Below are positions 43,958 through 59,297 of a stretch of DNA of 61,337 nucleotides, one piece after another. Under the pieces are notes generated by a model. It was not told where the DNA came from. It ran no database searches and saw nothing but the letters and a program-made list of their open reading frames with translations. The position numbers and the translations under genes are program-made. Position 1 is the first letter of the stretch. Each line of letters begins with the position of its first letter. This stretch comes from a virus. Taxonomy: Duplodnaviria; Caudoviricetes. Location: positions 1 through 61,337 of the IMG/VR virus record IMGVR_UViG_3300021438_000016; one strand, written 5' to 3'.

Positions 43958-44102
43958 GAAATAGAGGTGGGGGACGAAAGTTGGGAAGTGAGGGATTGGA
44001 TGTGCAAATTAGTATAGTAGCTGAGCCGCGCTCGCCCGGTACTTATTCGGGCCTCCCCGGGTATAGTGGGGTCCGCCAACCCTGTAAAACTTTTACAGAG
44101 AC

Positions 44103-44131
44103 TTGACAATGTACAGCGTTTGCCTGATAAT
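44103..44131 (+). promoter_or_regulatory. Sigma70-like early promoter
   Basis: TTGACA-17 bp-GATAAT; palindrome copy 6 bp upstream of the -35 box. Confidence 0.75.
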
Positions 44132-44176
44132 TCACTCACTCCAGCGATTTTGCTGGGGCATCAAAAGGAACCTATC

Positions 44177-44878
44177 ATGGCAAAAACGCCAATTCTCGCA
44201 GTTACCCTCAACGCTACTGAGGCCGCTAAACTCACCGAGGCCGTTAAGGCCGATCAGTCCGCCCGTTCGCTGGCTGGGGAAGTCGGGGTTATGTACGTGA
44301 AGCGCACCGGCCACAAGGTCTGGGACTCGTCCCTGCCACTATATGATCACTTCGCCACCGCAGTGTCGGACGTGATCCTCAAGGCCTCGCCCACGTACTC
44401 AAACGTCCGCATGATGACCAAGTATGCCCGGGACTCTGCACAAGCGTGGTTTATCGCGGAGGGTGATGCGGACCTCAAGGCCGCACGTGATGCGGCCGAT
44501 AAGGCCAAACTTGACGCGAAGGCCTTGGACGCAAAGGTCGCGGAGGCCGAGCGTCAAACCAAACGCGAGGACATCACGGTCGCGGAGGTCAAGGTTGCCA
44601 AGGCCGCACTAGCGGAGGCCAAGGCCGAACGCGGGCTGGCAAAGGCCACAGCGTCTCGACTGGCTGGAGAGTACGCCATGGCGTACGAAACCAAGTTTCC
44701 AGCCAAGGTCGTCGTGATGTCCAAACAGGACAAGATCGATAACTTCGTGAAGGCCGTCAAGTCTATCAAGGCCACGTTCGAAGCGCTGGAGGATGCCAGC
44801 GTGGACAAGTACGTGCATGAGGCCACGACGGCCTACCTTGAGAAAATGAAGCGCTGGACGGAAGTTAAGGCCAAGTAA
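44177..44878 (+). CDS. Ala/Lys-rich helical early protein (233 aa)
   Basis: Start moved to MAKTPIL, which has an AAGGA RBS; own promoter and terminator. Confidence 0.75.
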   Translation: MAKTPILAVTLNATEAAKLTEAVKADQSARSLAGEVGVMYVKRTGHKVWDSSLPLYDHFATAVSDVILKASPTYSNVRMMTKYARDSAQAWFIAEGDADLKAARDAADKAKLDAKALDAKVAEAERQTKREDITVAEVKVAKAALAEAKAERGLAKATASRLAGEYAMAYETKFPAKVVVMSKQDKIDNFVKAVKSIKATFEALEDASVDKYVHEATTAYLEKMKRWTEVKAK

Positions 44879-44892
44879 CCTTCCCCACCCCT

Positions 44893-44925
44893 AAAAACCC
44901 CCGGAGAAATCCGGGGGTTTTTTTT
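44893..44925. terminator. Bidirectional intrinsic terminator
   Basis: AAAAACCCCCGGA-GAAA-TCCGGGGGTTTTTTTT. Confidence 0.9.
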
Positions 44926-44986
44926 CGCCCGTGATTCTGGTGAATCACCAGTTCCGCGCTCACTCTCGCGCGCTTGCGTAAAAGTT

Positions 44987-45337
44987 TTACGCGAAGGTCT
45001 CAATGGCTACGGGTGTGATCTTCGCACCGTCTGCGGTGATCTCGTATATGCAGTGGCTAGCGGTGCCCGCGCAGTATATCCACCACACTCGCCTAGCCGC
45101 ACCAGATAGCGGGGCTTCTAAAAGTTTTTTGTAGTGTCGGTATGGCTTCGACGTAGACCCGCTTCGGGTACTTACAAGTTTTACCTGCACTCCGACGGTA
45201 GACTCGCCCTTAGATGCAACGATGTCAAAAACACCTCTGGACTTCGGAGCACGCCACACCGAGTAGCCCATGTCGCGGAAGATTTTAGCAACGATGGCCT
45301 CTCCGCGATTCCCAAGTCTCATTTTATTGGTCTGCAT
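44987..45337 (-). CDS. PD-(D/E)xK nuclease, Hjc-like Holliday junction resolvase fold
   Basis: GNRGE...GYSVWRAPKSRGVFDIVA...VQVK. Confidence 0.7.
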   Translation of the reverse strand: MQTNKMRLGNRGEAIVAKIFRDMGYSVWRAPKSRGVFDIVASKGESTVGVQVKLVSTRSGSTSKPYRHYKKLLEAPLSGAARRVWWIYCAGTASHCIYEITADGAKITPVAIETFA

Positions 45338-45370
45338 TGCTTCGTACCCTACGCTGTCTGCTACGCAACC

Positions 45371-45399
45371 AGCGTACCTGAAGATGTGCTAGAAGTCAA
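45371..45399 (-). promoter_or_regulatory. Sigma70-like promoter for the Hjc-like gene
   Basis: Minus strand TTGACT-17 bp-TACGCT. Confidence 0.5.
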
Positions 45400-45489
45400 G
45401 CAAAAATACCCCGTCAGTTGCGTATACCCCCAAAATGCTCTGAAACCCGCACCAGCACTGGGTTTCGCAGGGGGAGGGAGGGAGGGGTG

Positions 45490-45825
45490 TGTGTTCCAAC
45501 TGTTCTGTATGTTCTATTAATGTTCTATATCTATATCTATATCTATCTAGTATCTACGCGGGTTCTAGCCTTTTGTTCTAGGGTTCGGCTTTTACCCCCC
45601 CAAAACGACGAAAGGGAAAATTGGTCGGAGAAAAACGATCGTGCTAATTTTTTTAGCTTGTTTCTTCATTGTCTAACTTCCGCTTTCCCCAAATGACCAT
45701 TTTTTACCCGAACCTTAGAACCCTAGAACAACTTGACACCGTAAAGCCGCTAACCCGCGCCGTTCCTAGGCCCTCCAAAAAACACCCCCTAACACTTCGA
45801 ACATAGCCAAGAACATAGGGAACAC
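45490..45825. repeat. Non-coding region with opposed GTTC/GAAC repeat arrays (candidate origin)
   Basis: GTTC cluster 45493-45586, (TATATC)n run, GAAC cluster 45710-45823; perfect 14-bp inverted repeat 45573-45586/45718-45731. Confidence 0.6.
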
Positions 45826-45834
45826 AATTCAGGT

Positions 45835-45863
45835 TTGACTTTTTTACGGAGGCCTGATACACT
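45835..45863 (+). promoter_or_regulatory. Sigma70-like promoter
   Basis: TTGACT-17 bp-TACACT with extended -10 TG. Confidence 0.6.
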
Positions 45864-45913
45864 AACCCTTCCTTAACCCAGCCGTATCCCAGCGGCGCAT
45901 CGGAGACTGCCAA

Positions 45914-46387
45914 ATGGCACCCACTGCCAAGACCCACACCGTAACCGACCTCCCTCCAAACGTATCCAAGTACATCGACGTGCAGGAAAAAGACGCAAGC
46001 TCCCCCAAGTGGAGCGACCACTGGATCTGGACTGGCGTGTACCACTCGGACGGAATGCCACTCATCGGAAGCAAGACGGCCCATAGCGTTATCTACCGCT
46101 ACCTCAACCCTGAGATAGCAAAACTCGACGGGCGCATCCTGCGCCAGTGCGGAGATAAACGGTGTGTGAACCCTGCCCACATGCGGTACCCCATGCACGA
46201 GGGCCCGCTGAAGCTAAGCAAGTTAGACCCTGCCGTACGTAAGGCGTGGTTAGGCAGACCCTCAGGCTCCAGCGTGACCATCGCGCAGATAGAGAAGGAG
46301 CATGAAGAAAGTACCCCAGCTATCGTAAAAGTTTTACAAAGGATCGCAGAGGCGTTGGAGGAGGCAAACAAACTAGCAAGTAAGTAG
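45914..46387 (+). CDS. HNH-like protein, catalytic His apparently lost
   Basis: WIWTG...AHSVIY...ILRQCGDKRCVNPAHM. Confidence 0.7.
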   Translation: MAPTAKTHTVTDLPPNVSKYIDVQEKDASSPKWSDHWIWTGVYHSDGMPLIGSKTAHSVIYRYLNPEIAKLDGRILRQCGDKRCVNPAHMRYPMHEGPLKLSKLDPAVRKAWLGRPSGSSVTIAQIEKEHEESTPAIVKVLQRIAEALEEANKLASK

Positions 46388-46427
46388 GAAGGAGAGGAAG
46401 GGGTGGGAAGGACGTTCTTACCCCAAG

Positions 46428-46606
46428 TAAAAACTTGAGACTGCAAAGCAGTCCCTATGCCATAAAAACACAAAAATAACCCACCTAAAAACTTGACAAA
46501 GTATATTCTTTGTGGTATAATGACCGTAGGTCATGTGGTGTTGTTCAGCCGCATGACCGAGGGGCAATCCCGCCCCGACGTAGCGTAAAAATTTTACAGA
46601 AGAGGT
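46428..46606 (+). promoter_or_regulatory. Consensus sigma70 promoter cassette, copy 1
   Basis: TTGACA(46493)-17-TATAAT(46516) with extended TG; flanking hairpins; palindrome; AGAGG RBS. Confidence 0.85.
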
Positions 46607-46611
46607 GTGAG

Positions 46612-46713
46612 ATGAGTGCTGAGAGAGTGATGAACTGGGTAGCCGCGTTTTGTGTGGGCTACGTAATCGGCGTGTCAATCGCCGCGTTGGTAATCTTTTA
46701 TTGGAGAGGGTGA
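46612..46713 (+). CDS. Small single-TM protein (33 aa)
   Basis: MSAERVMNWVAAFCVGYVIGVSIAALVIFYWRG, GAGG RBS. Confidence 0.6.
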   Translation: MSAERVMNWVAAFCVGYVIGVSIAALVIFYWRG

Positions 46714-46714
46714 G

Positions 46715-46900
46715 ATGAGAATTAACGGTTGGTCAATCGTGGATTCCCCTGCGGGGGTGTCGGTGCGGTACGAGACGCGTGACCCGGAGATATGTTTCCG
46801 GGTTGCTAATGACATGATCATCATTACGATCTACAAAAACTATGAGGACGACACGCCTGTAACTTTGACTGTGCCACTAGAGATGGAAGGGAGCGAGTGA
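46715..46900 (+). CDS. Hypothetical protein
   Basis: 61 aa, GAGG RBS, tight packing. Confidence 0.6.
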   Translation: MRINGWSIVDSPAGVSVRYETRDPEICFRVANDMIIITIYKNYEDDTPVTLTVPLEMEGSE

Positions 46901-47091
46901 TGGACAAGAACGAGGAATACGCCATGAGGCGCGTGTTAATTGCAAAAGCCGTTTTGAAGATCGTGCAGGACATTCAGAAAAATCACTACGATGCCATCGA
47001 GACTGTGCTTGCTTGGCATTCAACCGAAGATCTTGAAGCGTTCATTGAGTACGACAACCCCCCAACGAGGACTAAAGAAAATGCTAGTTAA
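46897..47091 (+). CDS. Hypothetical protein
   Basis: 64 aa, GGAG RBS, GTGA overlap. Confidence 0.6.
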   Translation: MMDKNEEYAMRRVLIAKAVLKIVQDIQKNHYDAIETVLAWHSTEDLEAFIEYDNPPTRTKENAS

Positions 47092-47287
47092 AAACGACGA
47101 CGGACAGATGGCGATCCGCAAGGACTGGGGACCGACACTGATCGGGATCGGATACACACGCCCCGGCCCAAAGAACTGCGCGGTCATATCGTGGGACATG
47201 GAGAGGTTGCAGACCAGTCTCCTGCTACGGCACAAGGCACCGATGCGGACCCGCTTAGTAAAACTTTTACGGTTTGGGAGAGTGTGA
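47081..47287 (+). CDS. Hypothetical protein
   Basis: MLVKNDDGQ...DMERLQTSLL; fills the gap between coupled genes. Confidence 0.55.
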   Translation: MLVKNDDGQMAIRKDWGPTLIGIGYTRPGPKNCAVISWDMERLQTSLLLRHKAPMRTRLVKLLRFGRV

Positions 47288-47514
47288 TGGATGGGTACAC
47301 GGTAGAAGAGTTTGAGGCGATGATGAAGTTGATGGGTACGCAGGGGATCTACAACACGGCAGTTGCCAACGGGTGGGCAAAGCCCCCTCTTATCCTGACA
47401 CCGCAAGAAAGGATGATGCTGGTCAATCAGTATCGTGCAAACAAGGACATCCCTGCATATTTTTTCAACCTCGGAGATCAGGGCAAGTGGGGAGAAAAGC
47501 GTGGAGAAGAGTGA
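47284..47514 (+). CDS. GYTxEEF-family mini-protein 1
   Basis: MDGYTVEEFEAMMKLMG...LTPQERMMLVNQYR; GGAG RBS. Confidence 0.7.
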   Translation: MMDGYTVEEFEAMMKLMGTQGIYNTAVANGWAKPPLILTPQERMMLVNQYRANKDIPAYFFNLGDQGKWGEKRGEE

Positions 47515-47680
47515 AGAGGTCACCGGCTACACCGAAGAGGAGTTCAGGGCGATAGCCACGTTGATGGGGATAGGTACTTCTGTAAAGAACGTGTGGGTTG
47601 AGACGGAACCCATGACGCCTGAGTACAGGTTCAAGTTAATCCAAGCATATAGGAGGGTGTTAGAAAGTGGAGACTACTGA
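47501..47680 (+). CDS. GYTxEEF-family mini-protein 2
   Basis: GYTEEEFRAIATLMG...MTPEYRFKLIQAYR; GTG start with GGAG RBS. Confidence 0.7.
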   Translation: MEKSEEVTGYTEEEFRAIATLMGIGTSVKNVWVETEPMTPEYRFKLIQAYRRVLESGDY

Positions 47681-47861
47681 AGACAAGATGGAGGGATACA
47701 CGCACGAGGAGTTCTGCGCTCTGCTTGATCTGATGGGGGTGAACTACGTCACGCGCGACCCGAACGCACGGAGCCCAAGGGATCGGATGAAGATCATCAA
47801 CTACTTCCGCTCGCAGAAGCGAGCAGAGCGCAAGGTGCAGGAGTTCTTGCATGAAATCTGA
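47667..47861 (+). CDS. GYTxEEF-family mini-protein 3
   Basis: MEGYTHEEFCALLDLMG...SPRDRMKIINYFR. Confidence 0.7.
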   Translation: METTEDKMEGYTHEEFCALLDLMGVNYVTRDPNARSPRDRMKIINYFRSQKRAERKVQEFLHEI

Positions 47862-48033
47862 GGAGGAAGAGGAAGAGGAAGAGATGGAGGGCTACACGCT
47901 GGGTGAGTTCCACGCGTTGCTCCTGCTTTTGGTAGACATAGAACCACGGCACCATGAGTTCATTGCGAAGTATTTTGGAAATGACATGACTCCGAAGCAG
48001 AGGATGGACTACATCAAGGTGCTCATGCGCTAG
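47851..48033 (+). CDS. GYTxEEF-family mini-protein 4
   Basis: E8 run then MEGYTLGEFHALLLLL...MTPKQRMDYIKVLMR. Confidence 0.7.
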   Translation: MKSEEEEEEEEMEGYTLGEFHALLLLLVDIEPRHHEFIAKYFGNDMTPKQRMDYIKVLMR

Positions 48034-48122
48034 GCTTGAGTTGTGTTGATTTCGTTTTTGTTCGTACGTGGGCACACCCACTAGTTTGATTAACGTAAAA
48101 CTTTTACAGAGAGGACAAAGAA

Positions 48123-48914: not shown

Positions 48915-48945
48915 GGGTGGGGCGCAACACCCCAAAAAGTTTCCC

Positions 48946-49116
48946 TAAAAACTTGGGTCTGCACAACGCAGACCGTACGCCAAAAAGTTCCCCTAAAAAC
49001 TTGACATTGTACAGAAAGTATGTTATAATGACCGTAGGTCATGTGGCATGAAGCACATGACCGGGGAAGTTTCCCCAGACCGTAACCGTAACCGTAAAAC
49101 TTTTACACACAGAGGA
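48946..49116 (+). promoter_or_regulatory. Consensus sigma70 promoter cassette, copy 2
   Basis: TTGACA(49001)-17-TATAAT(49024) with extended TG; same hairpin/palindrome layout as 46428-46606. Confidence 0.85.
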
Positions 49117-49126
49117 AGTTAGAGAA

Positions 49127-50203
49127 ATGGCTCAGATCAATCTTGCAAACAAGACCGTATCCCTTGCCGAAGCCGCCCGCCTGATCGAAGCGGTGGGCAC
49201 GAGCGTCACCATCATGCTTCAGGGCGAGCCGGGTATCGGTAAGTCCAGCATCCTGAAGATGATGAGCGACAAGACCCCGGACGGTGAGACTCGCATCAAG
49301 TCCTACATCGACGTGACTAACTTAGATCTCGGCGACATCGCTATGCCTTGGATCAACAAAGAGGACGGGTGCACACACTACGTACCCAACGCGCGGTTCG
49401 GGTTGCACACAGGCGCACCTGTGTTACTGATGCTCGACGAGTTGAGCAAGGGCCCCGACGCTATTCAGAACATGCTCCTGCCATTGTGTCTTGAGCGCCG
49501 CATGGGTGAGAAGAAGAATCACAAGAACACGATTATCTTTGCAACAGGCAACCTGTCCGGTGACGGGGTGGGCGACAAGCTCAAGCCCCATGCAATGAAT
49601 CGCTTCACGGTGGTGAAGGTTCGCAAGCCTACGTACAGCGAGTGGATCGAGTGGGGTATCGCCAACGGCATCGTGCCTGAGGTGCTCGCGGCAGTGAAGC
49701 AGTTCCCCGACTGCCTTGCATCGTATCAAGACGGTGACTCTCAGAAAGAGAACACCATGATCTATCACCCGACCCGCGCAGTGCAGGCGTTCGTATCCCC
49801 ACGGTCGCTAGAAAAAGCTAGTGACATCGTACGTATGCGTCGCGTGATCGGTGACGATCCGATGGAGGCCGCGCTGATCGGTACTGTGGGCGCGACGTTC
49901 GCACAGAAGCTGATGACGTTCCTGCACGTAGCAGATCAACTGCCAGCGCGTGAGAACTATCTTAACAACCCCGAGACTTGTCCCGTCCCTACCGACCCCA
50001 TGGCTCTGTGCATGTTGGTGTTTAGTGCAGTGACGTGGGTCGAGCGCAAGGACATGGACGCATGGATGAAGTACCTGCAACGCTTCAGCAAAGAGCATCA
50101 GGCTCTGTTCTGTACGGGTATCTGGAACTCACCCAAGCAGGGCATGGCGGCGACGTGCCGACCGTTCGTTGACTGGGCGCGGGTCAACAAGTACATCCTG
50201 TGA
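49127..50203 (+). CDS. MoxR/dynein-related AAA+ ATPase
   Basis: Walker A GEPGIGKS, Walker B LLMLDE, ATGN, NRF, SPRS. Confidence 0.9.
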   Translation: MAQINLANKTVSLAEAARLIEAVGTSVTIMLQGEPGIGKSSILKMMSDKTPDGETRIKSYIDVTNLDLGDIAMPWINKEDGCTHYVPNARFGLHTGAPVLLMLDELSKGPDAIQNMLLPLCLERRMGEKKNHKNTIIFATGNLSGDGVGDKLKPHAMNRFTVVKVRKPTYSEWIEWGIANGIVPEVLAAVKQFPDCLASYQDGDSQKENTMIYHPTRAVQAFVSPRSLEKASDIVRMRRVIGDDPMEAALIGTVGATFAQKLMTFLHVADQLPARENYLNNPETCPVPTDPMALCMLVFSAVTWVERKDMDAWMKYLQRFSKEHQALFCTGIWNSPKQGMAATCRPFVDWARVNKYIL

Positions 50204-50216
50204 GGTGAGGATGTAT

Positions 50217-50345
50217 ATGAAAGTTTACTTTAGAGGTAGTGGCAACAAAGCCCCGTTCGTCATTGAGACTAATCTTGATTGGGCGATACCCTATTGGACT
50301 GCCCGTAAAAAACACAACCCTAAAATATTTTGGGTGTTTGCGTAA
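50217..50345 (+). CDS. Small hypothetical protein (42 aa, not in the ORF track)
   Basis: MKVYFRGSGNKAPFVIETNLDWAIPYWTARKKHNPKIFWVFA; GAGG RBS; the stop codon lies in a palindrome copy. Confidence 0.55.
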   Translation: MKVYFRGSGNKAPFVIETNLDWAIPYWTARKKHNPKIFWVFA

Positions 50346-50397
50346 AACTTTTACAACGGGGGCGCAACACCATGGCCCCCAACAACTGGAGAGAGTG

Positions 50398-51609
50398 ATG
50401 TTTAAAGATACATTGACAGTCGAGCAACGCATCGAGCGTAGCCACGTGCAACTCATGAAGGACAAGCGGTTCGTGCGCTGGTCTGGGTTGTTCATGATCG
50501 GCAAGGTTGAGGTGGTGGACAACCCCTTCGTGACTGCATGTACCAACGGGCGTGACGTTCTGTATGGGCGTGAGTTCTGCAAAGATCTCACCGAGAAGGA
50601 ACTCAACTTCCTTGTCATGCACGAGAATATGCACAAGGCGTACCGTCACCTGACTACGTGGAAGCATCTGTTCAAAGAGGACAAGCGGTGTGCCGGTGCG
50701 GCGTGTGACTACGTGATCAACCAGCAGTTGGTTGACTACGACCCCAACGGTTCGATGCTTCAGATGATCGAGGGTGGTCTGATCGACGAGAAGTATCGCG
50801 GCATGGACACCCAGCAGATCTACGACATTCTCCGTCAGAAGAAGAAAGAGAAAGGCAAGGGTCGCAAGCCGGGGGACCAGCCCTGCGAGGGTAACGAGGA
50901 TGGGCTCGATGGGTTTGACGAGCACGACTTCGAGGGAGCGGAGCAGATTAGCGAGGAGGATAAGAAAGTATTGACACGCCAGATCGAGGACGCGCTACGC
51001 CAAGGTGGCATGTTGGCGGGCAAGCTCGGTGCTAACGCTGACAAACTATTCGACGAACTTGTCGATCCCAAGGTTGACTGGAAGGAAGTGTTCCGTCAGT
51101 GGTGCAAGGCAGTGGCGGCAGGGCGTGATCGTTCTACGTGGCGCAAGCCCAACCGTAGGTTCTTACACAACGACATCATCATGCCTAGCATGGAGAGCGT
51201 CACCCTTGGTCGCATTGTCGTAGGTATTGATACGTCCGGGTCTATTGGCAGTGCCGCACTTGCTGAGTTCTTTTCCGAGCTTGTCGGTATCTGTACAGAT
51301 GTGGTGCCTGAGTGTGTCGATCTTCTGTATTGGGATACCAAGATCGCTTCGCACGAGGTGTACTCGCAGGACATGCTCGGGTCTATCGTCAACACGACCA
51401 AGCCCAAGGGTGGCGGGGGCACTGACCCCGACTGCATCCCCGTCTATATTAAGAAGGAACGCATGGACCCGGTGTGCGTGGTCATCCTGACCGACGGGTA
51501 TATCGGACGATGTGAGGAAGATTTATGGACAGGTCTCGCGCCAACGCTCTGGGTAGTGACTCAGAACAAGGGGTGGAAGCCCCCGTACGGTCAATCAGTC
51601 AACATGTAG
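50398..51609 (+). CDS. Metallopeptidase-vWA protein (DUF2201-like)
   Basis: Start moved to MFKDTL (GGAGAG RBS); TACTNG, HENMH (HExxH), MIDAS DTSGS, GGGGTD, LTDG. Confidence 0.85.
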   Translation: MFKDTLTVEQRIERSHVQLMKDKRFVRWSGLFMIGKVEVVDNPFVTACTNGRDVLYGREFCKDLTEKELNFLVMHENMHKAYRHLTTWKHLFKEDKRCAGAACDYVINQQLVDYDPNGSMLQMIEGGLIDEKYRGMDTQQIYDILRQKKKEKGKGRKPGDQPCEGNEDGLDGFDEHDFEGAEQISEEDKKVLTRQIEDALRQGGMLAGKLGANADKLFDELVDPKVDWKEVFRQWCKAVAAGRDRSTWRKPNRRFLHNDIIMPSMESVTLGRIVVGIDTSGSIGSAALAEFFSELVGICTDVVPECVDLLYWDTKIASHEVYSQDMLGSIVNTTKPKGGGGTDPDCIPVYIKKERMDPVCVVILTDGYIGRCEEDLWTGLAPTLWVVTQNKGWKPPYGQSVNM

Positions 51610-51776
51610 GAGAGCACACACAAGAAGAACTTATCGCACTGCTTGCCCTGTCTGGCATCGAGGTGGAGTACATCGACGAGGTGGCTCTGCTTCGTGTCAC
51701 GGGGCACAACGACGACGACTCAGCAATACTTAAAGCGCTATTGCGTAAAACTTTTACAGAGAGCAAATCATCATGA
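51573..51776 (+). CDS. Small hypothetical protein, possible distant GYTxEEF relative
   Basis: GEHTQEELIALLALSG; start codon uncertain. Confidence 0.4.
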   Translation: MEAPVRSISQHVGEHTQEELIALLALSGIEVEYIDEVALLRVTGHNDDDSAILKALLRKTFTESKSS

Positions 51777-52657
51777 CTTCGATCATCACGACCCCAACCT
51801 TCGGCCCATCCATCGCATCCAGCGCCATGCTGGTCAACCTCAGCGTAGGCAACTGGACCGCTCGCAAGCTAGATCGCAAAGTTAGCGAGGACGTAGACAA
51901 GCAGAACAATACGATGGGACGAGCGGGCAACTACCATAAGAACTTACTGGCAGGTGCACAACAACTCGATCTGATAAACAAGTTCGTAGCTAACACGCGC
52001 AACCGGCACTATCACCTCACACTGCCATGGGCAGACACCGGCCCACGCTTGCTCCCGATGAAGCGGTTCTTCGACTACAAGGCAGAGGCAGACACATGGA
52101 TCGGCAAGTACAACGAGATGGTCAAGGAGTTCTTCGTAGCCTACCCGACCATGGTCAGTGCCGCCGCGTTCCAACTCGGTGCAATGTTTGATCGCTCCGA
52201 GTACCCAGAGGTCGAGCAGTTGCAGAGGAAGTTTTACATGGAGGTCAACTTCTGGCCTGTGCCGGAGACCGGAGACTTTCGTGTTGACTGCGAGATGCAG
52301 ATCCGTGACGAACTCAACGAGCACTACCGTCAGCTATACGACAAGCAGGTGGGTGCGGCTATGGGCGACGCGTGGTCACGCTTGCACACGGTGCTCAAGC
52401 ATCTGGTTGACCGACTGACTGACGGGGAGGAGGGTGACCGTAAGATCTTCCAGTCATCCATGATCGAGAAGGCTAACGAACTTATCGACACGCTCGACAG
52501 CATGAACATCACCAACGACCCGCAGTTGGAAGGTGCGCGTGCTCATCTTGCCGCCGCCCTTGCCGGTGTCTCCGTAAAAGATTTACGAGATTCCAAAGCT
52601 GTACGCTTCGATGTACGTACACAAGTCGAAGACATCCTCAACAAGTTTGCATTTTAA
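51773..52657 (+). CDS. DUF3150-like protein
   Basis: SAMLVNLSVGNWTARKLD...TLPW.D.GPRLLP...NITNDPQLE; follows the AAA+/vWA pair. Confidence 0.65.
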   Translation: MTSIITTPTFGPSIASSAMLVNLSVGNWTARKLDRKVSEDVDKQNNTMGRAGNYHKNLLAGAQQLDLINKFVANTRNRHYHLTLPWADTGPRLLPMKRFFDYKAEADTWIGKYNEMVKEFFVAYPTMVSAAAFQLGAMFDRSEYPEVEQLQRKFYMEVNFWPVPETGDFRVDCEMQIRDELNEHYRQLYDKQVGAAMGDAWSRLHTVLKHLVDRLTDGEEGDRKIFQSSMIEKANELIDTLDSMNITNDPQLEGARAHLAAALAGVSVKDLRDSKAVRFDVRTQVEDILNKFAF

Positions 52658-52673: not shown

Positions 52674-53663
52674 ATGACCATACTGCACAAAGGCAAACGC
52701 CACCACTACTTCACCCTTACCGCGCTCCGCAAGGTAGGGACCCAAGAGATCGTCGAAGAGGTGGCCGGTGCTGACATCTGGAACGACAGAGTTTTCCATC
52801 AACCGCTGATCTGGTTGCTCGACGCCATGCGTGTGACGTACACAGACCCGACAATCTACTTCGAAGTACGGAACAAAAAGTCCATCGCTGTGATGCAAGC
52901 GGGTATTAACATGGGCGTGCTAGGTACGTTCAAACCCAACGGTGACGTGCGTGACACGGTACAGGCAGAGGTGTGTAGTCCTAGGATCAAGAACCGCAAG
53001 TCTCCCGCAGATGTTAAGCGCTCAAGCACTCGGGCCAAGGCGGAGAAGCTGGTAGAACTTCTGGACTACAAGACTCCTGAGGTGTACGCCGAACGGCAGC
53101 GCTACCACCTAGATAGCAATATCAACAGGATAATCCACAAGTCCGCGCCGATAGAGGACAGGGTGTTGACCAACTTCGTTGAGAGTATTCACTACTCTTT
53201 TGAGTACGCCCTGCTAGCGAGGATGATGCGTGGGCAGACCACTGCGGCAGACCAGCAGGAGTTCGAGAAGTATCTGACTGCGTACGACAAGGTGCAGGAT
53301 CAGCGCATGGAGCAAGCGCTTCTGAGAGATCTTTGGGTAACTCTTCAAGAACTCCCGCCGGGCGGTCCGTCCTTGTACCGCATGGTCATACATCAGCGCA
53401 CGGCCACCGGGGGGGCCGGAATCACAGAGACATTCGTGAACACAATTAGGGATTTCCCTAGTACCGACGCGCTACCTGACGTGATACAAAGTAAGCTCGC
53501 TCTGCTGCAATTGGGCACAGGGGATGAGGCCAAGATGGTGGGGTTCCGACACGAGGCTGATTGCGATTGGCTTACGCGTTATGGCTTCATCGGTGAAGAT
53601 CTAGGAGAGTTGCTTGACACCGGAAGGGAAAGTAAAGAAGGAGGTGGTGGCCTATCTGAATGA
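52674..53663 (+). CDS. Hypothetical protein
   Basis: Start moved to MTILHK (AGGAG RBS); long ORF. Confidence 0.7.
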   Translation: MTILHKGKRHHYFTLTALRKVGTQEIVEEVAGADIWNDRVFHQPLIWLLDAMRVTYTDPTIYFEVRNKKSIAVMQAGINMGVLGTFKPNGDVRDTVQAEVCSPRIKNRKSPADVKRSSTRAKAEKLVELLDYKTPEVYAERQRYHLDSNINRIIHKSAPIEDRVLTNFVESIHYSFEYALLARMMRGQTTAADQQEFEKYLTAYDKVQDQRMEQALLRDLWVTLQELPPGGPSLYRMVIHQRTATGGAGITETFVNTIRDFPSTDALPDVIQSKLALLQLGTGDEAKMVGFRHEADCDWLTRYGFIGEDLGELLDTGRESKEGGGGLSE

Positions 53664-53907
53664 GAGGGGCGCATACTATTTCTTCCCCGTCACGGGCGGC
53701 TACGGTCGCTCGGGCGTGCCTGACATAGTTGCGTGTCTGAATGGTAGGTTCGTAGGTATCGAGTGCAAGGCTGGCGACAACCAGCCTACCGCATTGCAAG
53801 TGAAGAATCTGAAGGCCATCCGTTCTGCGGGGGGCCTTTCTTTTTGTGTGAACAGCGTAAAAGTTTTACGCGAACAACTGGAGAGTGACCTTGAAGGATT
53901 GGAGTGA
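53614..53907 (+). CDS. VRR-NUC domain nuclease
   Basis: TPEGKVK...GVPDIVAC..GRFVGIECKAG...PTALQ. Confidence 0.9.
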   Translation: MTPEGKVKKEVVAYLNERGAYYFFPVTGGYGRSGVPDIVACLNGRFVGIECKAGDNQPTALQVKNLKAIRSAGGLSFCVNSVKVLREQLESDLEGLE

Positions 53908-54112: not shown

Positions 54113-54115
54113 CCA

Positions 54116-54609: not shown

Positions 54610-54800
54610 AACTAGGTGACGCTTGGAGGCAATGGTGGATAGGAACACACGGGCACAACATGCCCATGGGCGGGTATCACCCGATGGAAGGACACATGTT
54701 CGATGCGTTTAAGGCGGGATGGGAAGCAGCGGAGGCGCAATCTTGCCCTCCTTGCAATGGCAATTGCAACCAAGGAAGAGAATGTCCAGCACGGGACTGA
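54606..54800 (+). CDS. Hypothetical protein with C-terminal Cys cluster
   Basis: AFKAGWEAA...CPPCNGNCNQGRECPAR. Confidence 0.6.
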   Translation: MKLGDAWRQWWIGTHGHNMPMGGYHPMEGHMFDAFKAGWEAAEAQSCPPCNGNCNQGRECPARD

Positions 54801-54934
54801 AGAACTGCCAGCAGTGTCGGATCAAACCAGCAACATACAAAGTACCAACGGCAAACGGAAAGAGTTTTCGTTGGAAGTGCGAGAGTTGTTACAAACGACT
54901 CGCGCCGAGTGGCTTTAAGGAAAAATATGTTTAA
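54782..54934 (+). CDS. Small zinc-ribbon protein
   Basis: CQQC...WKCESC. Confidence 0.5.
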   Translation: MSSTGLKNCQQCRIKPATYKVPTANGKSFRWKCESCYKRLAPSGFKEKYV

Positions 54935-54954
54935 AGGATCAATGGAGAAGAACG

Positions 54955-55143
54955 ATGGATAAGATACCTCACCCAAATAACGTAGACATGGACGCAATGA
55001 CGCTGCGCGATTATTTTGCGGCCAAGGCAATGCAAACATTTACAAAAAATTTGGGTTGCCAGTCTGACCAAAAATGGTTTGATGGAGTCGCAGAAGGTGC
55101 GTACCGAATGGCTGACGCAATGCTGAAAGCGAGGCAACAATGA
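54955..55143 (+). CDS. Small phage protein (MTLRDYFAAKAM family)
   Basis: MTLRDYFAAKAMQ...AYRMADAMLKAR. Confidence 0.75.
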   Translation: MDKIPHPNNVDMDAMTLRDYFAAKAMQTFTKNLGCQSDQKWFDGVAEGAYRMADAMLKARQQ

Positions 55144-55505
55144 AGTACCGCAAGAAGCCGGTGGTCGTTGAGGCGACGCAATGGTTCAAGAACGGCGACC
55201 ATCCGCTGGACTACAGCAAAACGCACGACGGTCTTGAAAACGGTGAATTGCGCCAGTTCACACCAGAGGAACGGAAATCAAATCAATGGGAAGGCGACAT
55301 CGTTCGCTACTACCGAGTACCCGGCCTCGATGGGAAGGCGGAGTGCGCGTATTGTGGCGACATCATGCACAACCACGGCTGGATTGATACATCGGAAGGC
55401 GGGCATGTTGTCTGCCCCGGCGACTGGATTATCACGGGCGTAATGGGCGAACACTACCCCTGCAAAGACAAAATCTTTCGGATGACCTACGAGGCAGCGG
55501 AATGA
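55140..55505 (+). CDS. Phage protein (PGDYG-like)
   Basis: MKYRKKPVVVEATQW...PGDWIITG..GEHYPCK..IF..TY. Confidence 0.75.
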   Translation: MKYRKKPVVVEATQWFKNGDHPLDYSKTHDGLENGELRQFTPEERKSNQWEGDIVRYYRVPGLDGKAECAYCGDIMHNHGWIDTSEGGHVVCPGDWIITGVMGEHYPCKDKIFRMTYEAAE

Positions 55506-55720
55506 AGCGTGAACTATACGACTTCATAACCCCACCCGATTCAAAGGGGGCACACGTTAGTTTGTATTACTTCCCACACAATCAGCGCAGCAGTCTCGGC
55601 CTTCAGTCTCTCGCACCGAACTACAACGAACCCCCCTGCATGGTGGCAAACTACGACAGAGACGGTAACCTGCTGTACACGCGGTTCATATTTAAAGACG
55701 GGACATGGAGAGATGACTAA
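55502..55720 (+). CDS. Hypothetical protein
   Basis: 72 aa, ATGA coupling. Confidence 0.55.
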   Translation: MKRELYDFITPPDSKGAHVSLYYFPHNQRSSLGLQSLAPNYNEPPCMVANYDRDGNLLYTRFIFKDGTWRDD

Positions 55721-55859
55721 GTACGGAATCCTTGATGACGAAGGCAAGGTGATCCGGTGGGTGTGGCATCTCCCGCCATACCCGCACGTGGTTGAGAAAA
55801 TTAAACGCAAACGTAAACCCAAGTTGGATTTGTCCAACGTACCGGACGCATTATTTTGA
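55713..55859 (+). CDS. Small hypothetical protein (48 aa, not in the ORF track)
   Basis: MTKYGILDDEGKVIRWVW...VPDALF; GGAG RBS. Confidence 0.55.
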   Translation: MTKYGILDDEGKVIRWVWHLPPYPHVVEKIKRKRKPKLDLSNVPDALF

Positions 55860-56011
55860 GCACACCTATTACCCCACAACAGATGATTGAATACATGCTG
55901 GCGCTATTAGACAGTGTGGTCAAAGATTATCCTGAAGAAGAGCAGGAAGCTACCAAGGCGAAGATACTGGATGCGTTTAGTGCGGCTATGTTTAAAGGAG
56001 CAAAAGAATGA
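55856..56011 (+). CDS. Small hypothetical protein (not in the ORF track)
   Basis: TTGA/ATGA overlaps on both sides; ...MIEYMLALLDSVVKDYPEEEQE... Confidence 0.45.
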   Translation: MSTPITPQQMIEYMLALLDSVVKDYPEEEQEATKAKILDAFSAAMFKGAKE

Positions 56012-56247
56012 GTATCAAAGACGTTAGAGCAGACGACATGCAAGTGGGCGGCGACCACTACAAAGAGATGGGAGTCCCGCCATGGGACGTGATTGAAGCC
56101 GTGCTGTCTCGCAAGGAATTCATAGGGTTCTTGAAGGGCAATATCATCAAGTACGGAATGCGGCAGGGTAAGAAGGACTCTGACGACGCGGGCAAGTGCT
56201 TGCACTACAAAAGGAAATTAGAAGAGATAGAGGGGAAACTGTGGTGA
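56008..56247 (+). CDS. DUF3310 (SaV-like) protein
   Basis: QVGGDHY...GFLKGNIIKY..R.GKK...D..K..HY. Confidence 0.85.
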   Translation: MSIKDVRADDMQVGGDHYKEMGVPPWDVIEAVLSRKEFIGFLKGNIIKYGMRQGKKDSDDAGKCLHYKRKLEEIEGKLW

Positions 56248-56519
56248 CTAGAGAAGATGTTATTAGGATGGCACGAGAGGCAGGCGCTAAGCCCTCGCAT
56301 CACCCTGAGCTATGGGACATTTGGAACATTCGAGACACGGACCTTGAACGCTTTGCCGCACTTGTTGCCGCGCATGCACGAGAGGCCGAGGCCGCTAAAT
56401 GGGCAAAAGGCGCAAACATTAGTGTTCCCACTAGAGTAATGGAGCAGCAATTTTCTATATATTACCGCCGTGGATACGAAGCTGGAGTATTAGTTAATAA
56501 GGAGAAGAATGGTGGATGA
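56244..56519 (+). CDS. Hypothetical protein
   Basis: TREDVIRMAREAG...LERFAALVAA. Confidence 0.65.
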   Translation: MTREDVIRMAREAGAKPSHHPELWDIWNIRDTDLERFAALVAAHAREAEAAKWAKGANISVPTRVMEQQFSIYYRRGYEAGVLVNKEKNGG

Positions 56520-56685
56520 TAAATACACATACGAAACATATGACATGGCGCGGTTCAATATCCCTGAAGGCATGTACTCAATAGCAGAAGTTGAAAACAT
56601 GCTTGCCACCATGAAAGAGGCAAAGAATCGACAGGACGAAATGCTAAAAGCCGCGATGCAAGGGTATGAGGAGAAGAACGGATGA
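56509..56685 (+). CDS. Small hypothetical protein (58 aa, not in the ORF track)
   Basis: MVDDKYTYE...; AAGGAG RBS. Confidence 0.55.
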   Translation: MVDDKYTYETYDMARFNIPEGMYSIAEVENMLATMKEAKNRQDEMLKAAMQGYEEKNG

Positions 56686-56930
56686 CTTGGGAAGAATATA
56701 ACCAACTGTTTCACCGCGCTCATGTCAACGAGGTGGCGTTCAAACGAGTGATTGATTGCGACGAAGAGCTTCGTAAGATGGTTGAGATGGCGATTGAAGA
56801 TGAGCGGGAAGAGTGCGCCAAGGTGTGTGAAGCCGGGGTCGTACAGACAAACAACTGGGACGCCAGCGACTGGAACCAAGCCTGTGAAATCCGAGCCGCC
56901 GCTATCCGAAGAAGGGGAGAGAAGGCTTGA
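56682..56930 (+). CDS. Hypothetical protein
   Basis: EREECAKVCE...AAAIRRRGE. Confidence 0.65.
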   Translation: MTWEEYNQLFHRAHVNEVAFKRVIDCDEELRKMVEMAIEDEREECAKVCEAGVVQTNNWDASDWNQACEIRAAAIRRRGEKA

Positions 56931-56955
56931 CAGGGGGTCAAGTAGACTGTATATT
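56927..56955 (+). promoter_or_regulatory. Sigma70-like promoter
   Basis: TTGACA-17 bp-TATATT, 6 nt before the ATG at 56962. Confidence 0.6.
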
Positions 56956-56961
56956 ACACAC

Positions 56962-57465
56962 ATGAGCCATAAAAATACACCTGAGAATTTTTGGAGTAAG
57001 GTACGCAAACCAACCCCAACAGACTGTTGGGAGTGGCAGGGGGCTCTTACCTCTACTGGGTACGGAAATTTGGGATGGCATGGGCGACATGTACAAGCCC
57101 ATCGAGTTGCATACTTTTTAACTCATGGGGGTATTCCTCTGGAAACCGGGTTTCGTGAGGGGGCCGCTAAAGCAGGTAAACAATTTGTATTGCATAAGTG
57201 CGATAACCGAAAGTGTTGCAACCCTGATCATTTATTTTTAGGGTCTATGCGGGATAATCAAATAGATGCCTATAAGAAAAAACGTAGGGAACAACCAAAA
57301 AGTAAACATGTCAATGCAAAATTAACTCCAGAACAAGTGAAAGAAATCCGCACTCGATATACCGCAGGGGGTGTAGGACAAATACCTTTGTCTAAAGAAT
57401 TTGGTGTAAGCCAACGAGTGATTAGCCTTGTGGTTAGACGAGAGACATATAAGGATGTGACATGA
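56962..57465 (+). CDS. HNH homing endonuclease with C-terminal HTH
   Basis: FWSKV...CWEWQG...AHRVAY...VLHKCDNRKCCNPDHL...N; AKLT..QVKEIR...EFGVSQ. Confidence 0.9.
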   Translation: MSHKNTPENFWSKVRKPTPTDCWEWQGALTSTGYGNLGWHGRHVQAHRVAYFLTHGGIPLETGFREGAAKAGKQFVLHKCDNRKCCNPDHLFLGSMRDNQIDAYKKKRREQPKSKHVNAKLTPEQVKEIRTRYTAGGVGQIPLSKEFGVSQRVISLVVRRETYKDVT

Positions 57466-59297
57466 TATTTGTCGATCTGGAAACCTACTACGACCGAGAC
57501 TTCAGCCTCTCCAAAATATCTACCGAAGAGTACATCCGTGACCCAAGGTTTGAAGTCATCGGCGTGGCGGTTAAAGTGGACGATGAGGAAACGCAGAGCT
57601 TCTCTGGCTCGCGTGCCGAAACGAAGGCTTGGCTACAACAGTTCGATTGGGGGAATTCCCTCGCCTGTGCTCACAACGCGCTTTTTGATGCGGCAATTAT
57701 GGCGTGGCACTTCGAGATTTATCCGAAGGCTTGGGCTGACACTATGTCGATGGCTCAAGCGTTATTGGGGACACGGTGCAAGGTCGGACTAGCGCACCTC
57801 GCTTCGTACTTTAATATAGGTACAAAAGGGACCGAGGTAATTAACGCATTGGGTAAGACGCGTAAAAGTTTTACACATGTCGAGATGGAGCGGTACATGT
57901 CGTACTGCCGAAATGACGTTGACCTGACCGCCGCGCTGTATACACGGATGTACAACTTCAGGGCCAACGATGACTTCACGTTCGAGGAGTTCCCTCTAAA
58001 AGAACTTAAGCTAATCGACCTCACTATCCGCATGTTTACTCAGCCCGTACTTGAAGTGGACGTGCCACTGCTGGAGGCGCACCTCATCAAGGTGAAAGAA
58101 GACAAGGCAAAGCTACTTGACGATGCGGGTATCAACCTTGAAGACGTGATGAGCAACCCGAAGTTTGCCGAGATACTACGCAGACTTGGTATTGATCCCC
58201 CCACCAAAATATCTCCCACTACTGGCAAACAGACCTACGCTTTTGCCAAGACGGACGAGGCGTTTAGGGCGTTGGCTGAGCATCCCGACCTGCGGGTGCA
58301 AGCGGTGGTAGCTGCGCGGCTTGGGGTGAAAACAACCATCGAGGAGTCTCGCACCGAGCGGTTCATCGGCATAGGCAAGCGGGGGCCACTGCCAGTCCCT
58401 CTTAAGTATTACGCTGCCCATACAGGCAGGTGGGGCGGGTCTGACAAACTTAATATGCAGAACCTACCTAGTAGGGGGAACGCATCCGCCCTGAAAAAGT
58501 CTCTCCGCGCACCGGCTGGGCACGTCATCATCTCATGCGACTCCTCGCAGATCGAGGCGCGGACCCTTGCGTGGCTGGCTGGACAGGAAGACTTGGTGAC
58601 TGCCTTCGCTAACGGCGAGGATGTCTACAAGATCATGGCGTCAAAAATTTATCATAAGCCGGTTACTGAAATAACCAAGGAGGAGCGGTTCTTCGGAAAA
58701 ACCGTGACCCTTGCATGCGGTTTTAGTATGGGGGCGGAGAAGTTTCATGGCATGTTGTCTCTCATACCGGGAGCAAAGATCAGCATGGGCGAGGCCGAGC
58801 GCATCATCGCCGTGTACCGGGGGGTCAACCCCAAGATCGTGCGTCTGTGGAAACTCGCAGACAGAGCCATACACTACATGGGTGCCTCCCAAGGCTGGAG
58901 GTTCGGTAGGGACGACCTGCTGGAGTTGGGGCCCAAGTGCATCATCCTGCCCAACACCATGAAGATCGAGTACCACGACCTGAGGAACACCAACATAGAT
59001 GGATGGAGGTACAGCACGCTGCGGGAGAGAAACGTAAAGCTATACGCGGGAAAATTGGTTGAAAATGTGGTGCAGGGGCTCGCGCGGATCATTGTGGGTG
59101 AGCAGATGCTGAGGATCGCTAAGAAGTACCGTCCCGTCTTGACAGTTCATGATGCAGTGTCTATAATTGTTCCAGAGCAGGAGTCTATCGAGGCGATGGC
59201 GTATGTTCAGGAATGTATGCGCTGGGTTCCTAAGTGGGCTAATGGTTTACCCGTAGATTGCGAAATAGGATGCGGCCCAACTTATGCAGATTCTTGA
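57462..59297 (+). CDS. polA: Family A DNA polymerase (3'-5' exonuclease plus polymerase)
   Basis: ExoI DLET, HNALFD, YCRNDV; TGRWGG, NMQNLP, motif A DSSQIEAR, motif C TVHD. Confidence 0.92.
   Translation: MIFVDLETYYDRDFSLSKISTEEYIRDPRFEVIGVAVKVDDEETQSFSGSRAETKAWLQQFDWGNSLACAHNALFDAAIMAWHFEIYPKAWADTMSMAQALLGTRCKVGLAHLASYFNIGTKGTEVINALGKTRKSFTHVEMERYMSYCRNDVDLTAALYTRMYNFRANDDFTFEEFPLKELKLIDLTIRMFTQPVLEVDVPLLEAHLIKVKEDKAKLLDDAGINLEDVMSNPKFAEILRRLGIDPPTKISPTTGKQTYAFAKTDEAFRALAEHPDLRVQAVVAARLGVKTTIEESRTERFIGIGKRGPLPVPLKYYAAHTGRWGGSDKLNMQNLPSRGNASALKKSLRAPAGHVIISCDSSQIEARTLAWLAGQEDLVTAFANGEDVYKIMASKIYHKPVTEITKEERFFGKTVTLACGFSMGAEKFHGMLSLIPGAKISMGEAERIIAVYRGVNPKIVRLWKLADRAIHYMGASQGWRFGRDDLLELGPKCIILPNTMKIEYHDLRNTNIDGWRYSTLRERNVKLYAGKLVENVVQGLARIIVGEQMLRIAKKYRPVLTVHDAVSIIVPEQESIEAMAYVQECMRWVPKWANGLPVDCEIGCGPTYADS

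Follow-up and report, generated by a model that had tools for sequence, protein, structure and literature searches.

Why does a lytic-type phage repeat one short palindrome eleven times in its early region and nowhere else in its sequence? The question is raised by the IMG/VR record IMGVR_UViG_3300021438_000016, a virus of the Caudoviricetes, which was analysed over its whole length of 61,337 bp (the window; 97% complete according to CheckV and classed as linear) and whose sequence is contained in DNA runs labelled as freshwater metagenomes. The element concerned is the 13-bp palindrome GTAAAANTTTTAC. Judged from the genomes compared here, its copies form a real system of cis-elements that is conserved, evolving and strongly non-random. 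We favour, tentatively and with slightly less than even confidence, their reading as operators for a symmetric, lineage-specific phage regulator that would block or tune early transcription.

An exact scan of the whole record located the palindrome at eleven positions, every one of them between 44,084 and 57,874 (Table 1), and a mismatch scan added the one-mismatch copy at 52574. All of these had been listed in a preliminary description made from the letters of the sequence, and the two scans agree with it in full. In 100 dinucleotide-preserving shuffles, the palindrome occurred with a mean of 0.00 and a maximum of 0. When up to two mismatches were allowed, 14 matches were obtained against 2.04 expected, and the sole match beyond 44-58 kb, a two-mismatch match close to the left end of the record, is within chance expectation. 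The late block holds no exact copy, and the final 6 kb of the plus-strand block (58-61.3 kb together with 1-2.5 kb) contain no copies. The confinement to the early block, first proposed from inspection by eye, is thus real and not a product of chance. The flanks are also non-uniform, as had been described: a pyrimidine precedes and a purine follows the palindrome at ten of the eleven copies, the exception being 47258 with an A as its left base. The preferred flanks extend the site to 15 bp.

Table 1. Positions of the palindrome copies, their near-matches and the sigma-70-like promoters of the early block
Feature	Position	Strand	Sequence	Context
Copy 1	44084-44096		GTAAAACTTTTAC	divergent intergenic region; ends 6 nt before -35 hexamer, 80 nt 5′ of ATG 44177
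Copy 2	44978-44990			12 nt 5′ of ATG 45003 (43-aa ORF); variant contig swaps DNA directly after
Copy 3	46325-46337			inside 3′ end of HNH endonuclease gene 45914-46387
Copy 4	46585-46597			14 nt 5′ of ATG 46612; centre at about +63 of promoter 46493-46521
Copy 5	47258-47270			last 30 nt of ORF 47081-47287; 16 nt 5′ of ATG 47287
Copy 6	48095-48107			15 nt 5′ of ATG 48123 (263-aa conserved protein); terminator-like hairpin 48068-48081 before
Copy 7	49094-49106			20 nt 5′ of ATG 49127 (MoxR-like ATPase); centre at about +64 of promoter 49001-49029
Copy 8	50342-50354			43 nt 5′ of ATG 50398 (DUF2201/VWA protein)
Copy 9	51745-51757			15 nt 5′ of ATG 51773 (DUF3150 protein)
Copy 10	53857-53869			3′ end of Hjc/VRR-NUC-like ORF 53647-53907; 21 nt 5′ of TTG 53891
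Copy 11	57862-57874			inside DNA polymerase A, codons 134-138, peptide RKSFT
One-mismatch copy	52574-52586		GTAAAAGATTTAC	3′ end of DUF3150 gene, 5′ of fast-evolving 329-aa gene
Two-mismatch match	45172
Two-mismatch match	15-27
Promoter	44103-44131	+	TTGACA-17-GATAAT	sigma-70-like, 11/12 consensus; drives first plus-strand gene 44177-44878
Promoter	46493-46521	+		sigma-70 consensus 12/12 with TG; in duplicated promoter-leader-palindrome unit of about 190 bp
Promoter	49001-49029	+		sigma-70 consensus 12/12 with TG; second copy of duplicated promoter-leader unit

The copies are closely associated with gene starts. Eight of the eleven (copies 2 and 4 to 10) lie 12-43 nt 5′ of a start codon with a Shine-Dalgarno-like sequence in between, and this is also true of copies 5 and 10, which overlap the end of the preceding open reading frame (ORF). 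The preliminary description had counted seven copies at 13-45 nt from a start; the closeness stands, the number does not. Four copies are situated within ORFs (copies 3, 5, 10 and 11), that is, in the HNH, VRR-NUC-like and DNA polymerase genes already named in that description and additionally in ORF 47081-47287. Several copies are preceded by terminator-like hairpins. One copy had been said to abut a -35 box, and copy 1 indeed lies just ahead of the -35 hexamer of the promoter at 44103-44131; its region, upstream of the first early promoter, is probably not transcribed. The one-mismatch variant at 52574 is retained in identical form in three close relatives.

To place the palindrome in its family, relatives were collected with a profile of the ATPase encoded behind copy 7. 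The profile retrieved 414 viral contigs, and the 80 best loci among them were retained and sampled over 10 kb on either side. With a multi-copy palindrome defined by 5-nt arms, at least three different letters per arm and at least four copies, 54 of 82 early-region loci carried one, at equivalent positions and in at least a dozen sequence types, CTAACANTGTTAG and GTCACANTGTGAC being examples; 28 of the 82 had none, some of them short or truncated. Conservation in relatives, proposed in the preliminary description as a check, is seen in close relatives, with ATPases 94-96% identical, which share the palindrome of the window in similar copy numbers; other lineages have palindromes of their own in equivalent places. 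The types include CTAACA-N-TGTTAG, with up to 21 copies in 21 kb, forms with a two-base centre (TTAACA-NN-TGTTAA, CTAACA-NN-TGTTAG and TTAAAC-NN-GTTTAA), GTCACA-N-TGTGAC, CTAAA-N3-TTTAG and several with 4-nt centres. In three complete relatives, 11, 12 and 21 copies all fall within one segment of 10-15 kb; a fourth has one copy and a fifth none of that particular pattern. The position before the ATPase gene is occupied by the lineage's own palindrome in every relative inspected.

A cultured phage belongs to this picture. Planktothrix phage Pag-Yong1 has the ATPase, DUF3150 and VWA genes in common with the window phage and carries 20 copies of GTTCA-N3-TGAAC, usually as GGTTCAGSCTGAACC, in 35 kb. 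Most of them are located 13-25 nt 5′ of start codons, often right behind the preceding stop codon. No multi-copy palindrome was detected in the first 50 kb of HTVC027P (57.6 kb) or in 50 kb of DSL-LC04 (61.5 kb), whose kinship to the window is seen in the portal protein (38-45%). Thus, the feature is not general to the HTVC023P-type group; of the three named phages inspected, only the one with the ATPase/VWA/DUF3150 module has it. No earlier description of these repeats was found in a search of open-access main texts for HTVC023P and Pag-Yong1.

How fast the palindromes are exchanged is best seen in a low-GC subgroup, where loci with ATPases 90-94% identical have different palindromes. Ahead of the ribosome-binding site of the ATPase gene, a stretch of about 36-40 nt is swapped for another two-armed inverted repeat between conserved flanks, and within a genome all of the 4-7 sites have the same version. 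Sites that are alike throughout one genome but replaced in a near-identical one are what a matched pair of site and trans-acting reader would be expected to give. Since close relatives carry different palindromes, a decoy for a host regulator, one of five roles considered in the preliminary description, is unlikely. A second repeated word of the form CACRAAGTTAA was observed in 5-10 copies in several relatives (loci L014, L025, L021, L043 and L048); in L014 it is the right outer arm of the two-armed repeat. In two loci of the CTAACANTGTTAG class, a related word, AACAAAGTTA, is found seven times, separate from the palindrome.

The sites occupy a preferred place relative to promoters. For the family, 447 distinct sites were paired with strong sigma-70-like promoters within 200 nt on either side. 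Among 87 pairs with a promoter on the gene strand, the palindrome centre was at +40 to +60 of the predicted start in 45 and at +20 to +80 in 58; a further 20 had the site at -40 to -120, and the interval from -40 to +20 was empty. The 18 pairs with a promoter on the opposite strand were scattered. Hence the sites avoid the promoter core and prefer the early transcribed leader, which fits a roadblock or a leader element and not classical promoter occlusion. A host sigma-70 promoter inside the palindrome itself was ruled out by inspection, there being no -10 hexamer with the required T on a consistent strand. With crude start calling, the next start with a Shine-Dalgarno sequence ahead of it lay, across the family, at a median of 70 nt from a site in the gene direction, compared with 719 nt in the opposite direction and 116 nt from random points, and 45% of the sites were within 50 nt of a start as against 25% of the random points.

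In the window, the association of promoter and palindrome has even been duplicated as a whole. Two units of about 190 bp, 79% identical, are located at 46420-46615 and 48940-49130. Each contains an upstream hairpin preceded by TAAAAACTTG, a TTGACA-17-TATAAT promoter with TG and a conserved leader in which a 9-bp stem (GGTCATGTG...CACATGACC) comes first and a G/C hairpin follows, ahead of the palindrome and the ribosome-binding site. In the contig of one relative, the two copies of this unit are joined.

Several lines of evidence bear on whether the palindrome is read as DNA or as RNA. The central base shows no strand preference: it is T in 91, A in 88, C in 6 and G in 6 copies of the largest class, C in 22, G in 15, T in 1 and A in 1 copies of the window's class, and AA in 11 and TT in 9 copies of another class. 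No oriented element flanks the sites, which have in common only a preferred pyrimidine before, a preferred purine after and a purine-rich ribosome-binding site at variable distance. Among 49 one-mismatch copies of the largest class, 46 are not G.U-compatible and three are of the wobble type (two fitting RNA of the plus strand, one of the minus strand); as the symmetry and wobble counts were taken from related genomes, they are not independent counts. The changes are concentrated at the outermost and innermost positions, and those of the inner pair are about equally distributed over both arms. In minimum-free-energy RNA folds, the palindrome hairpin appeared at none of four window sites tested, with z-scores of +0.66 to -1.09, and Rfam gave no match anywhere in the window.

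The copies inside genes speak to the same point. Six genomes retain the copy in the DNA polymerase A gene without any change; none of the 4 third-codon positions in the copy varies, compared with 41 of 71 in the surrounding 213 nt, an outcome with a chance of about 0.03 by simple arithmetic if sites are independent. The synonymous-site conservation looked for at the in-gene copies was thus seen at this one. In the CTAACANTGTTAG class, in-gene copies stand at fixed alignment columns, in 17 of 20 ATPase genes at one column and in 8 of 20 at another, and in 13 of 13 DUF3150 genes; the core of this class is also present in 17 VWA ORFs (family listing: 41 class-B ORF fragments). At an ATPase column, the codons TCT AAC ATT GTT AGG are used in 10 of 13 distinct sequences of the class, and two loci with the same ATPase peptide but no site use other codons. 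These patterns indicate that in-gene copies are maintained through codon choice, i.e. by selection at the nucleotide level. Taken together, the evidence favours recognition as double-stranded DNA, the arguments for DNA being weighed as stronger than those for RNA.

The palindromes also mark some of the borders at which the early region is rearranged. Variant contigs from three other freshwater-labelled DNA runs and one RNA library were aligned on the early block. An abundant relative aligned over 44090-44992, had the next 393 nt replaced by 200 other letters and resumed alignment at 45386. One variant contig has a 34-nt insertion directly behind copy 6, and in the RNA-library contig position 44990 is joined to 44102. 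Other joints are situated away from palindromes (50204/50330, 54924/56682 and 47291/47691). Many of the small ORFs between sites are found in only some or none of five close relatives, and the sites persist. We read this as palindromes coinciding with some exchange points and so marking borders of gene cassettes, as a consequence of their conservation rather than as their purpose. The module-exchange site of the preliminary description accordingly receives direct but partial support.

What, then, would read the sites? In our preferred reading, the 13-bp palindrome and its flanking pyrimidine and purine would be the duplex DNA target of a two-fold symmetric, probably dimeric regulator. This regulator would be encoded by the phage, and its specificity would be private to the lineage. 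Sites are placed in leaders of host-type promoters, between cistrons before ribosome-binding sites, occasionally in genes and once 5′ of a promoter; a protein bound to them would control transcription over the whole early/middle block. Its likeliest mode of repression would be an elongation roadblock, or silencing from many dispersed operators, like that of stoperators and KorB operators. The cassette junctions would follow from the same arrangement, in which one short conserved sequence recurs in every gene unit. Of the five roles originally considered, global early-gene control fits best. The underlying proposal of binding sites for a dimeric protein gains from the dyad symmetry, the central base, the near-copies, the placement of copy 1 and the conservation within genes, whereas its other half, the protein, was not found.

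This last point heads the observations that weigh against the operator reading. No binding protein was identified, and 43 window ORFs compared with Pfam, with subsets compared with PHROGs and NCBIfam, yielded no match to helix-turn-helix, ribbon-helix-helix or ParB proteins and none to an RNA polymerase domain, an integrase or a repressor, so that the earlier remark that no repressor is recognisable still holds. Many small window ORFs belong to no detectable family. A co-occurrence of the motif with a specific gene, another check that had been suggested, failed to appear: in a regression across loci that took ATPase identity into account, none of 14 protein families co-varies with palindrome type. 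Among the scanned ORFs, no lysogeny gene was recognised, and a stoperator-style immunity repressor would therefore be without an obvious role. The dependence among the symmetry and wobble counts has to be added. Three further features resemble RNA signals: the tight, fixed Shine-Dalgarno spacing in several lineages, as a translational operator would have, the Shine-Dalgarno sequence inside the palindrome of one lineage, and the location of the low-GC relatives' palindromes within 36-nt two-stem hairpins that are stable in RNA at -8 to -13.5 kcal/mol. Short spacing can, however, also result where an intergenic gap is so short that it has room for no more than the site and the ribosome-binding site.

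Several proteins of the early region were considered as possible readers. A syntenic core present in all palindrome classes consists of the 263-aa protein, the ATPase, the VWA and DUF3150 proteins, a variable protein of about 300 aa and the Hjc-like nuclease. The variable protein is one remote family, with hhalign probabilities of 48-98% in five of six family pairs and 2.4% in the sixth. The 329-aa protein encoded at 52674-53663, which has remote homologues at the same position in all relatives, was ruled out as specificity determinant by its overall identity: it is 51-79% identical among genomes with identical palindromes, where neighbouring genes reach 85-96%. Its acidic C-terminal tail is nearly invariant, and its conserved C-terminal module of about 45 aa is found in relatives as a small protein that hardly differs from one palindrome to another. 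Foldseek found no PDB match for its AF2 model (pLDDT 81), VIA-align returned helical-hairpin rows only (Z up to 5.8), and tblastn between Pag-Yong1 and this protein gave no significant match. Near the VWA gene of Pag-Yong1 (locus L098), a 346-aa gene (OL906435.1:25453-26493) is annotated as anti-CRISPR AcrVA2. A model of the DUF3150 protein (pLDDT 78.6) had no PDB match, and one weak row (E 0.02) was all that a profile search of PDB sequences returned. The 263-aa conserved protein obtained no family, PDB-profile or Atlas name, and the 233-aa first early protein only sub-threshold Atlas leads (DUF3102, 0.80; a Streptomyces phage repressor family, 0.78).

One candidate comes from other lineages. 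A protein of about 75 aa (e.g. L087:14680-14901) was detected by profile search only in the two classes with the CTAACA half-site, in 17 of their 22 loci, and in one unclassified locus. Its conserved pattern, GRGxGKKPA-x3-SLRLP-x-EV-x-DY...QAKIREVL, looks like a ribbon-helix-helix protein by eye, and weak matches were obtained to the Pfam family BrnA_antitoxin (E 0.18, one member) and to the PDB profiles of AvtR (E 0.44) and 2q2k (E 0.9). It is a candidate site reader in the CTAACA lineages and is without a homologue in the window. A small, non-conserved protein specific to its class may be the determinant, or the determinant may be encoded outside the 10 kb sampled on either side. Upstream of the 263-aa homologue, most relatives (60 loci among L013-L090, e.g. 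L072:7583-7897) encode a four-cysteine zinc-ribbon protein of about 65-100 aa that resembles, by eye, RNA-polymerase-binding proteins of the TraR/DksA family. No member of this family was seen among the window ORFs or in close relatives with the same palindrome.

The RNA-like features mentioned above would suit a different reader. The palindrome could act in the mRNA just 5′ of ribosome-binding sites, where a phage RNA-binding protein would bind it or a sequence-specific endoribonuclease would cut it, resulting in translational repression of individual genes or decay of early mRNA; RegA and RegB of phage T4 follow a comparable logic. The eight copies shortly before start codons, the constant Shine-Dalgarno spacing in L036, L051, the low-GC group and Pag-Yong1 and the stable hairpins of the low-GC group are all consistent with this, as is the placement of such copies between cistrons or in leaders that are transcribed, with the family peak (+40 to +60) situated in the 5′ untranslated region. 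The details of the sequences argue otherwise: the class A palindrome has no stable RNA fold, loops and central bases vary while stem sequences are conserved, near-copies are not wobble-compatible, and the outer-arm mismatches of the low-GC hairpins are not compensatory. Moreover, copy 1 is upstream of its promoter, and copies of other classes are often deep inside genes at conserved columns. We regard an mRNA site as unlikely, though by no means far-fetched. Recombination as the primary function has a smaller probability in our judgement. Here, the palindromes would be short junctions or nuclease targets for swaps of early-gene cassettes between related phages, similar to the promoter-stem-loop cassettes of T4-type phages. 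The breaks at 44090 and 44992, the insertion after 48107, the joining of 44990 to 44102 and the patchy small ORFs between persistent sites would be explained, and the block encodes three HNH genes and an Hjc-like nuclease. Joints such as 54924/56682 and 50204/50330 are off the palindromes, however, and 13 bp is very short for homologous exchange. Recombination alone also leaves unexplained why copies are selected in essential genes, why one adjoins a promoter and how close relatives come to have all junctions replaced at once.

Two further explanations are improbable. Sites that are dense, regularly spread, present in genes too and restricted to one genome segment might organise DNA, as loading sites for partition or condensin-like proteins, handles for genome entry or marks that tell the phage's own genome from that of a coinfecting relative. 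The contiguous 13-bp palindrome resembles the KorB/ParB operators contained in the oligonucleotides of PMC11790492. Yet Pfam scans of the window ORFs recognised no ParB-like, SMC-like or partition ATPase gene, and the strong link to gene starts and promoter leaders is not needed for such a role, to which we give little credence. Still less credible is that the palindrome itself is a phage-specific promoter, or a loading or pause site of a phage transcription factor, with RNA starting a few bases downstream. The virion RNA polymerase of phage N4 reads promoters as extruded hairpins, and a stem of 5 bp with a loop of 3 nt is possible for the palindrome; several copies stand between a terminator-like hairpin and a gene whose leader is very short. 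In addition, a 2068-aa virion protein matches an N4 virion RNA polymerase family weakly (E 2.9e-12, residues 897-1052), and many of the nearest named relatives of the ATPase come from phages of about 70-80 kb that we take to be N4-like. But no RNA polymerase domain was found, the PHROG match of this protein is confined to profile positions 2078-2248 of 3406, away from the polymerase core, and a PDB sequence search with it found nothing. As a promoter, a symmetric element without an oriented flank would fire both ways. In one lineage the start codon follows 3-5 nt behind a palindrome with the Shine-Dalgarno sequence inside, the block is already served by strong sigma-70-like promoters, and in-gene copies are common in relatives.

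Returning to the operator reading, we consider one extension of it, a speculative 'regulatory barcode' that is unlikely as it stands. In each lineage of this widespread aquatic phage group, a private palindrome, present in 10-20 early copies including some placed in essential genes through codon choice, would be read by a fast-switching factor that silences or excludes the early genes of incoming genomes with the same barcode. Relatives with a switched barcode would escape, and cassette exchange would be limited to compatible genomes. Such a system would amount to heteroimmunity-like competition among phages without recognisable lysogeny genes.

The genomic setting of the palindromes is as follows. 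A leftward block at 2.6-43.9 kb encodes terminase, portal, structural, ejection and lysis proteins and the 2068-aa virion protein. The rightward block begins at 44.0 kb and continues across the end of the record as far as 2.5 kb. It contains many small ORFs, three HNH endonucleases, the conserved 263-aa protein, the MoxR-like ATPase, the DUF2201/VWA and DUF3150 proteins, the fast-evolving 329-aa protein and the Hjc-like nuclease, followed by DNA polymerase A, a PD-(D/E)XK nuclease, an SNF2 helicase and a primase/helicase. The two blocks diverge at 43.87-44.18 kb, where sigma-70-like promoters point in both directions. At both ends (1-2524 and 60239-61337), ORFs continue beyond the record, that of the primase/helicase at the 5′ end of the record and that of the SNF2 helicase at its 3′ end, and their reading frames do not join directly. 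Thus, the record is cut within replication genes and does not give the true genome ends. Megablast with 8 kb of the early block gave no match among phage records.

Further observations concern individual genes. In the 2068-aa virion-type protein (2588-8794, minus strand), the C-terminal 750 aa are similar to DarB-like antirestriction families, and an LPD39 domain match is below the Pfam cut-off. Four tandem small ORFs at 47287-48033 (75, 59, 64 and 60 aa) have the N-terminal motif GYTxEEFxAxxxLMG in common and look like paralogues that make up a small family within the accessory portion of the early block; ORF 51525-51776 contains a stretch resembling this motif. The HNH homing-type endonuclease gene at 56752-57465 adjoins the start of the polymerase gene and is probably a recent mobile insertion, since a counterpart is missing from all five close relatives.

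If a lineage-specific factor reads the sites, they would represent a global control circuit for early genes, of a type whose documented cases have so far come mainly from temperate mycobacteriophages and IncP plasmids. The phage group in question is large and mostly uncultured, with at least 414 viral contigs carrying the marker ATPase, and it is podovirus-like without recognisable lysogeny genes. Full replacement of the palindrome at 90-94% core identity, uniformity within genomes and, in one lineage, copies built into essential genes through codon choice make it a natural experiment on how protein-DNA specificity co-evolves and spreads. As the sites mark borders of swapped accessory genes, they also bear on how phage early regions stay mosaic. 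The interest of the system lies in its family-wide occurrence, its rapid switching, the copies written into essential genes and the existence of a cultured relative: Pag-Yong1 with its 20 palindrome copies makes the question testable at the bench.

Among known systems, the hairpin promoters of phage N4 are similar in that they, too, are short inverted repeats in a podovirus early region that can fold into a stem of 5-7 bp and a 3-nt loop. The ATPase/VWA gene pair is moreover shared with phages that are presumably N4-like. N4, however, has few hairpin promoters, near one end, with a strand-specific loop base and a giant virion RNA polymerase, in contrast to the 11-21 copies per genome (11 over 14 kb in the window) without strand preference of the central base, the host-type promoters and the lack of a polymerase domain among the proteins scanned here. 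RNase III-type hairpins and structured RNA families are not matched either, the window copies having neither a stable fold nor an Rfam match.

More similar in distribution are the SAS and ESAS elements of Cluster K mycobacteriophages. These are 13-bp sequences or inverted repeats restricted to the non-structural half of the genome, where they lie directly 5′ of starts, in 11-19 copies per genome, and the consensus of the inverted repeats differs between subclusters (PMC3203893, PMC12699233). Their authors considered RNA hairpins improbable and thought DNA-binding proteins the likelier explanation; the function was still described as open in 2025 (PMC3203893, PMC12699233). SAS is an asymmetric 13-mer with a Shine-Dalgarno core placed 3-7 bp before the start (PMC3203893), in contrast to a palindrome without such a core at 12-43 nt from starts. 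ESAS has imperfect 17-bp arms that are 4-13 bp apart (PMC3203893, PMC12699233), whereas the sites of the window are compact and exact and occur in promoter leaders and genes as well. Hosts and phage lineages of Cluster K are unrelated to those studied here.

The stoperators of Cluster A mycobacteriophages are many sites for repressors of the L5 gp71 type that halt elongation and do not act by promoter occlusion (PMC9283540, PMC6550527). Like them, the palindromes are numerous dispersed sites of 13 bp, mostly in short intergenic gaps (8 of 11 in short gaps before genes here), and their motif varies by sublineage just as the stoperator motif tracks the repressor of the subcluster (PMC9283540, PMC6550527). 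Stoperators are described as asymmetric, oriented with transcription and bound by a monomer (PMC9283540), in contrast to the exact palindromes with a symmetric centre considered here. They are distributed over both genome arms of temperate phages with a known repressor, whereas the palindromes are restricted to the early block of a phage in which no repressor or lysogeny gene was recognised among the scanned ORFs. Another difference is that some of the present lineages select many in-gene copies.

The IncP plasmid RK2 carries roughly a dozen copies of OB, the operator of KorB, classed as promoter-proximal, distal and intragenic. The window likewise has about a dozen dispersed copies, some adjacent to promoters and some distal or intragenic. 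OB, and also OA, the operator of KorA, is a short contiguous palindrome with a single central base, and the OB oligonucleotide contains TTTTAGCGGCTAAAA (PMC11790492). From dispersed palindromic OB sites, KorB is reported to silence transcription away from core promoters (PMC11790492). KorB is a CTPase clamp of the ParB family that works with KorA, whereas no ParB-like domain was detected in the 43 window ORFs; and it belongs to a plasmid, whereas the window is from a lytic-type phage, for which partition is not implied. By analogy, then, the stoperators are the closest system in logic and the KorB operators the closest in site format.

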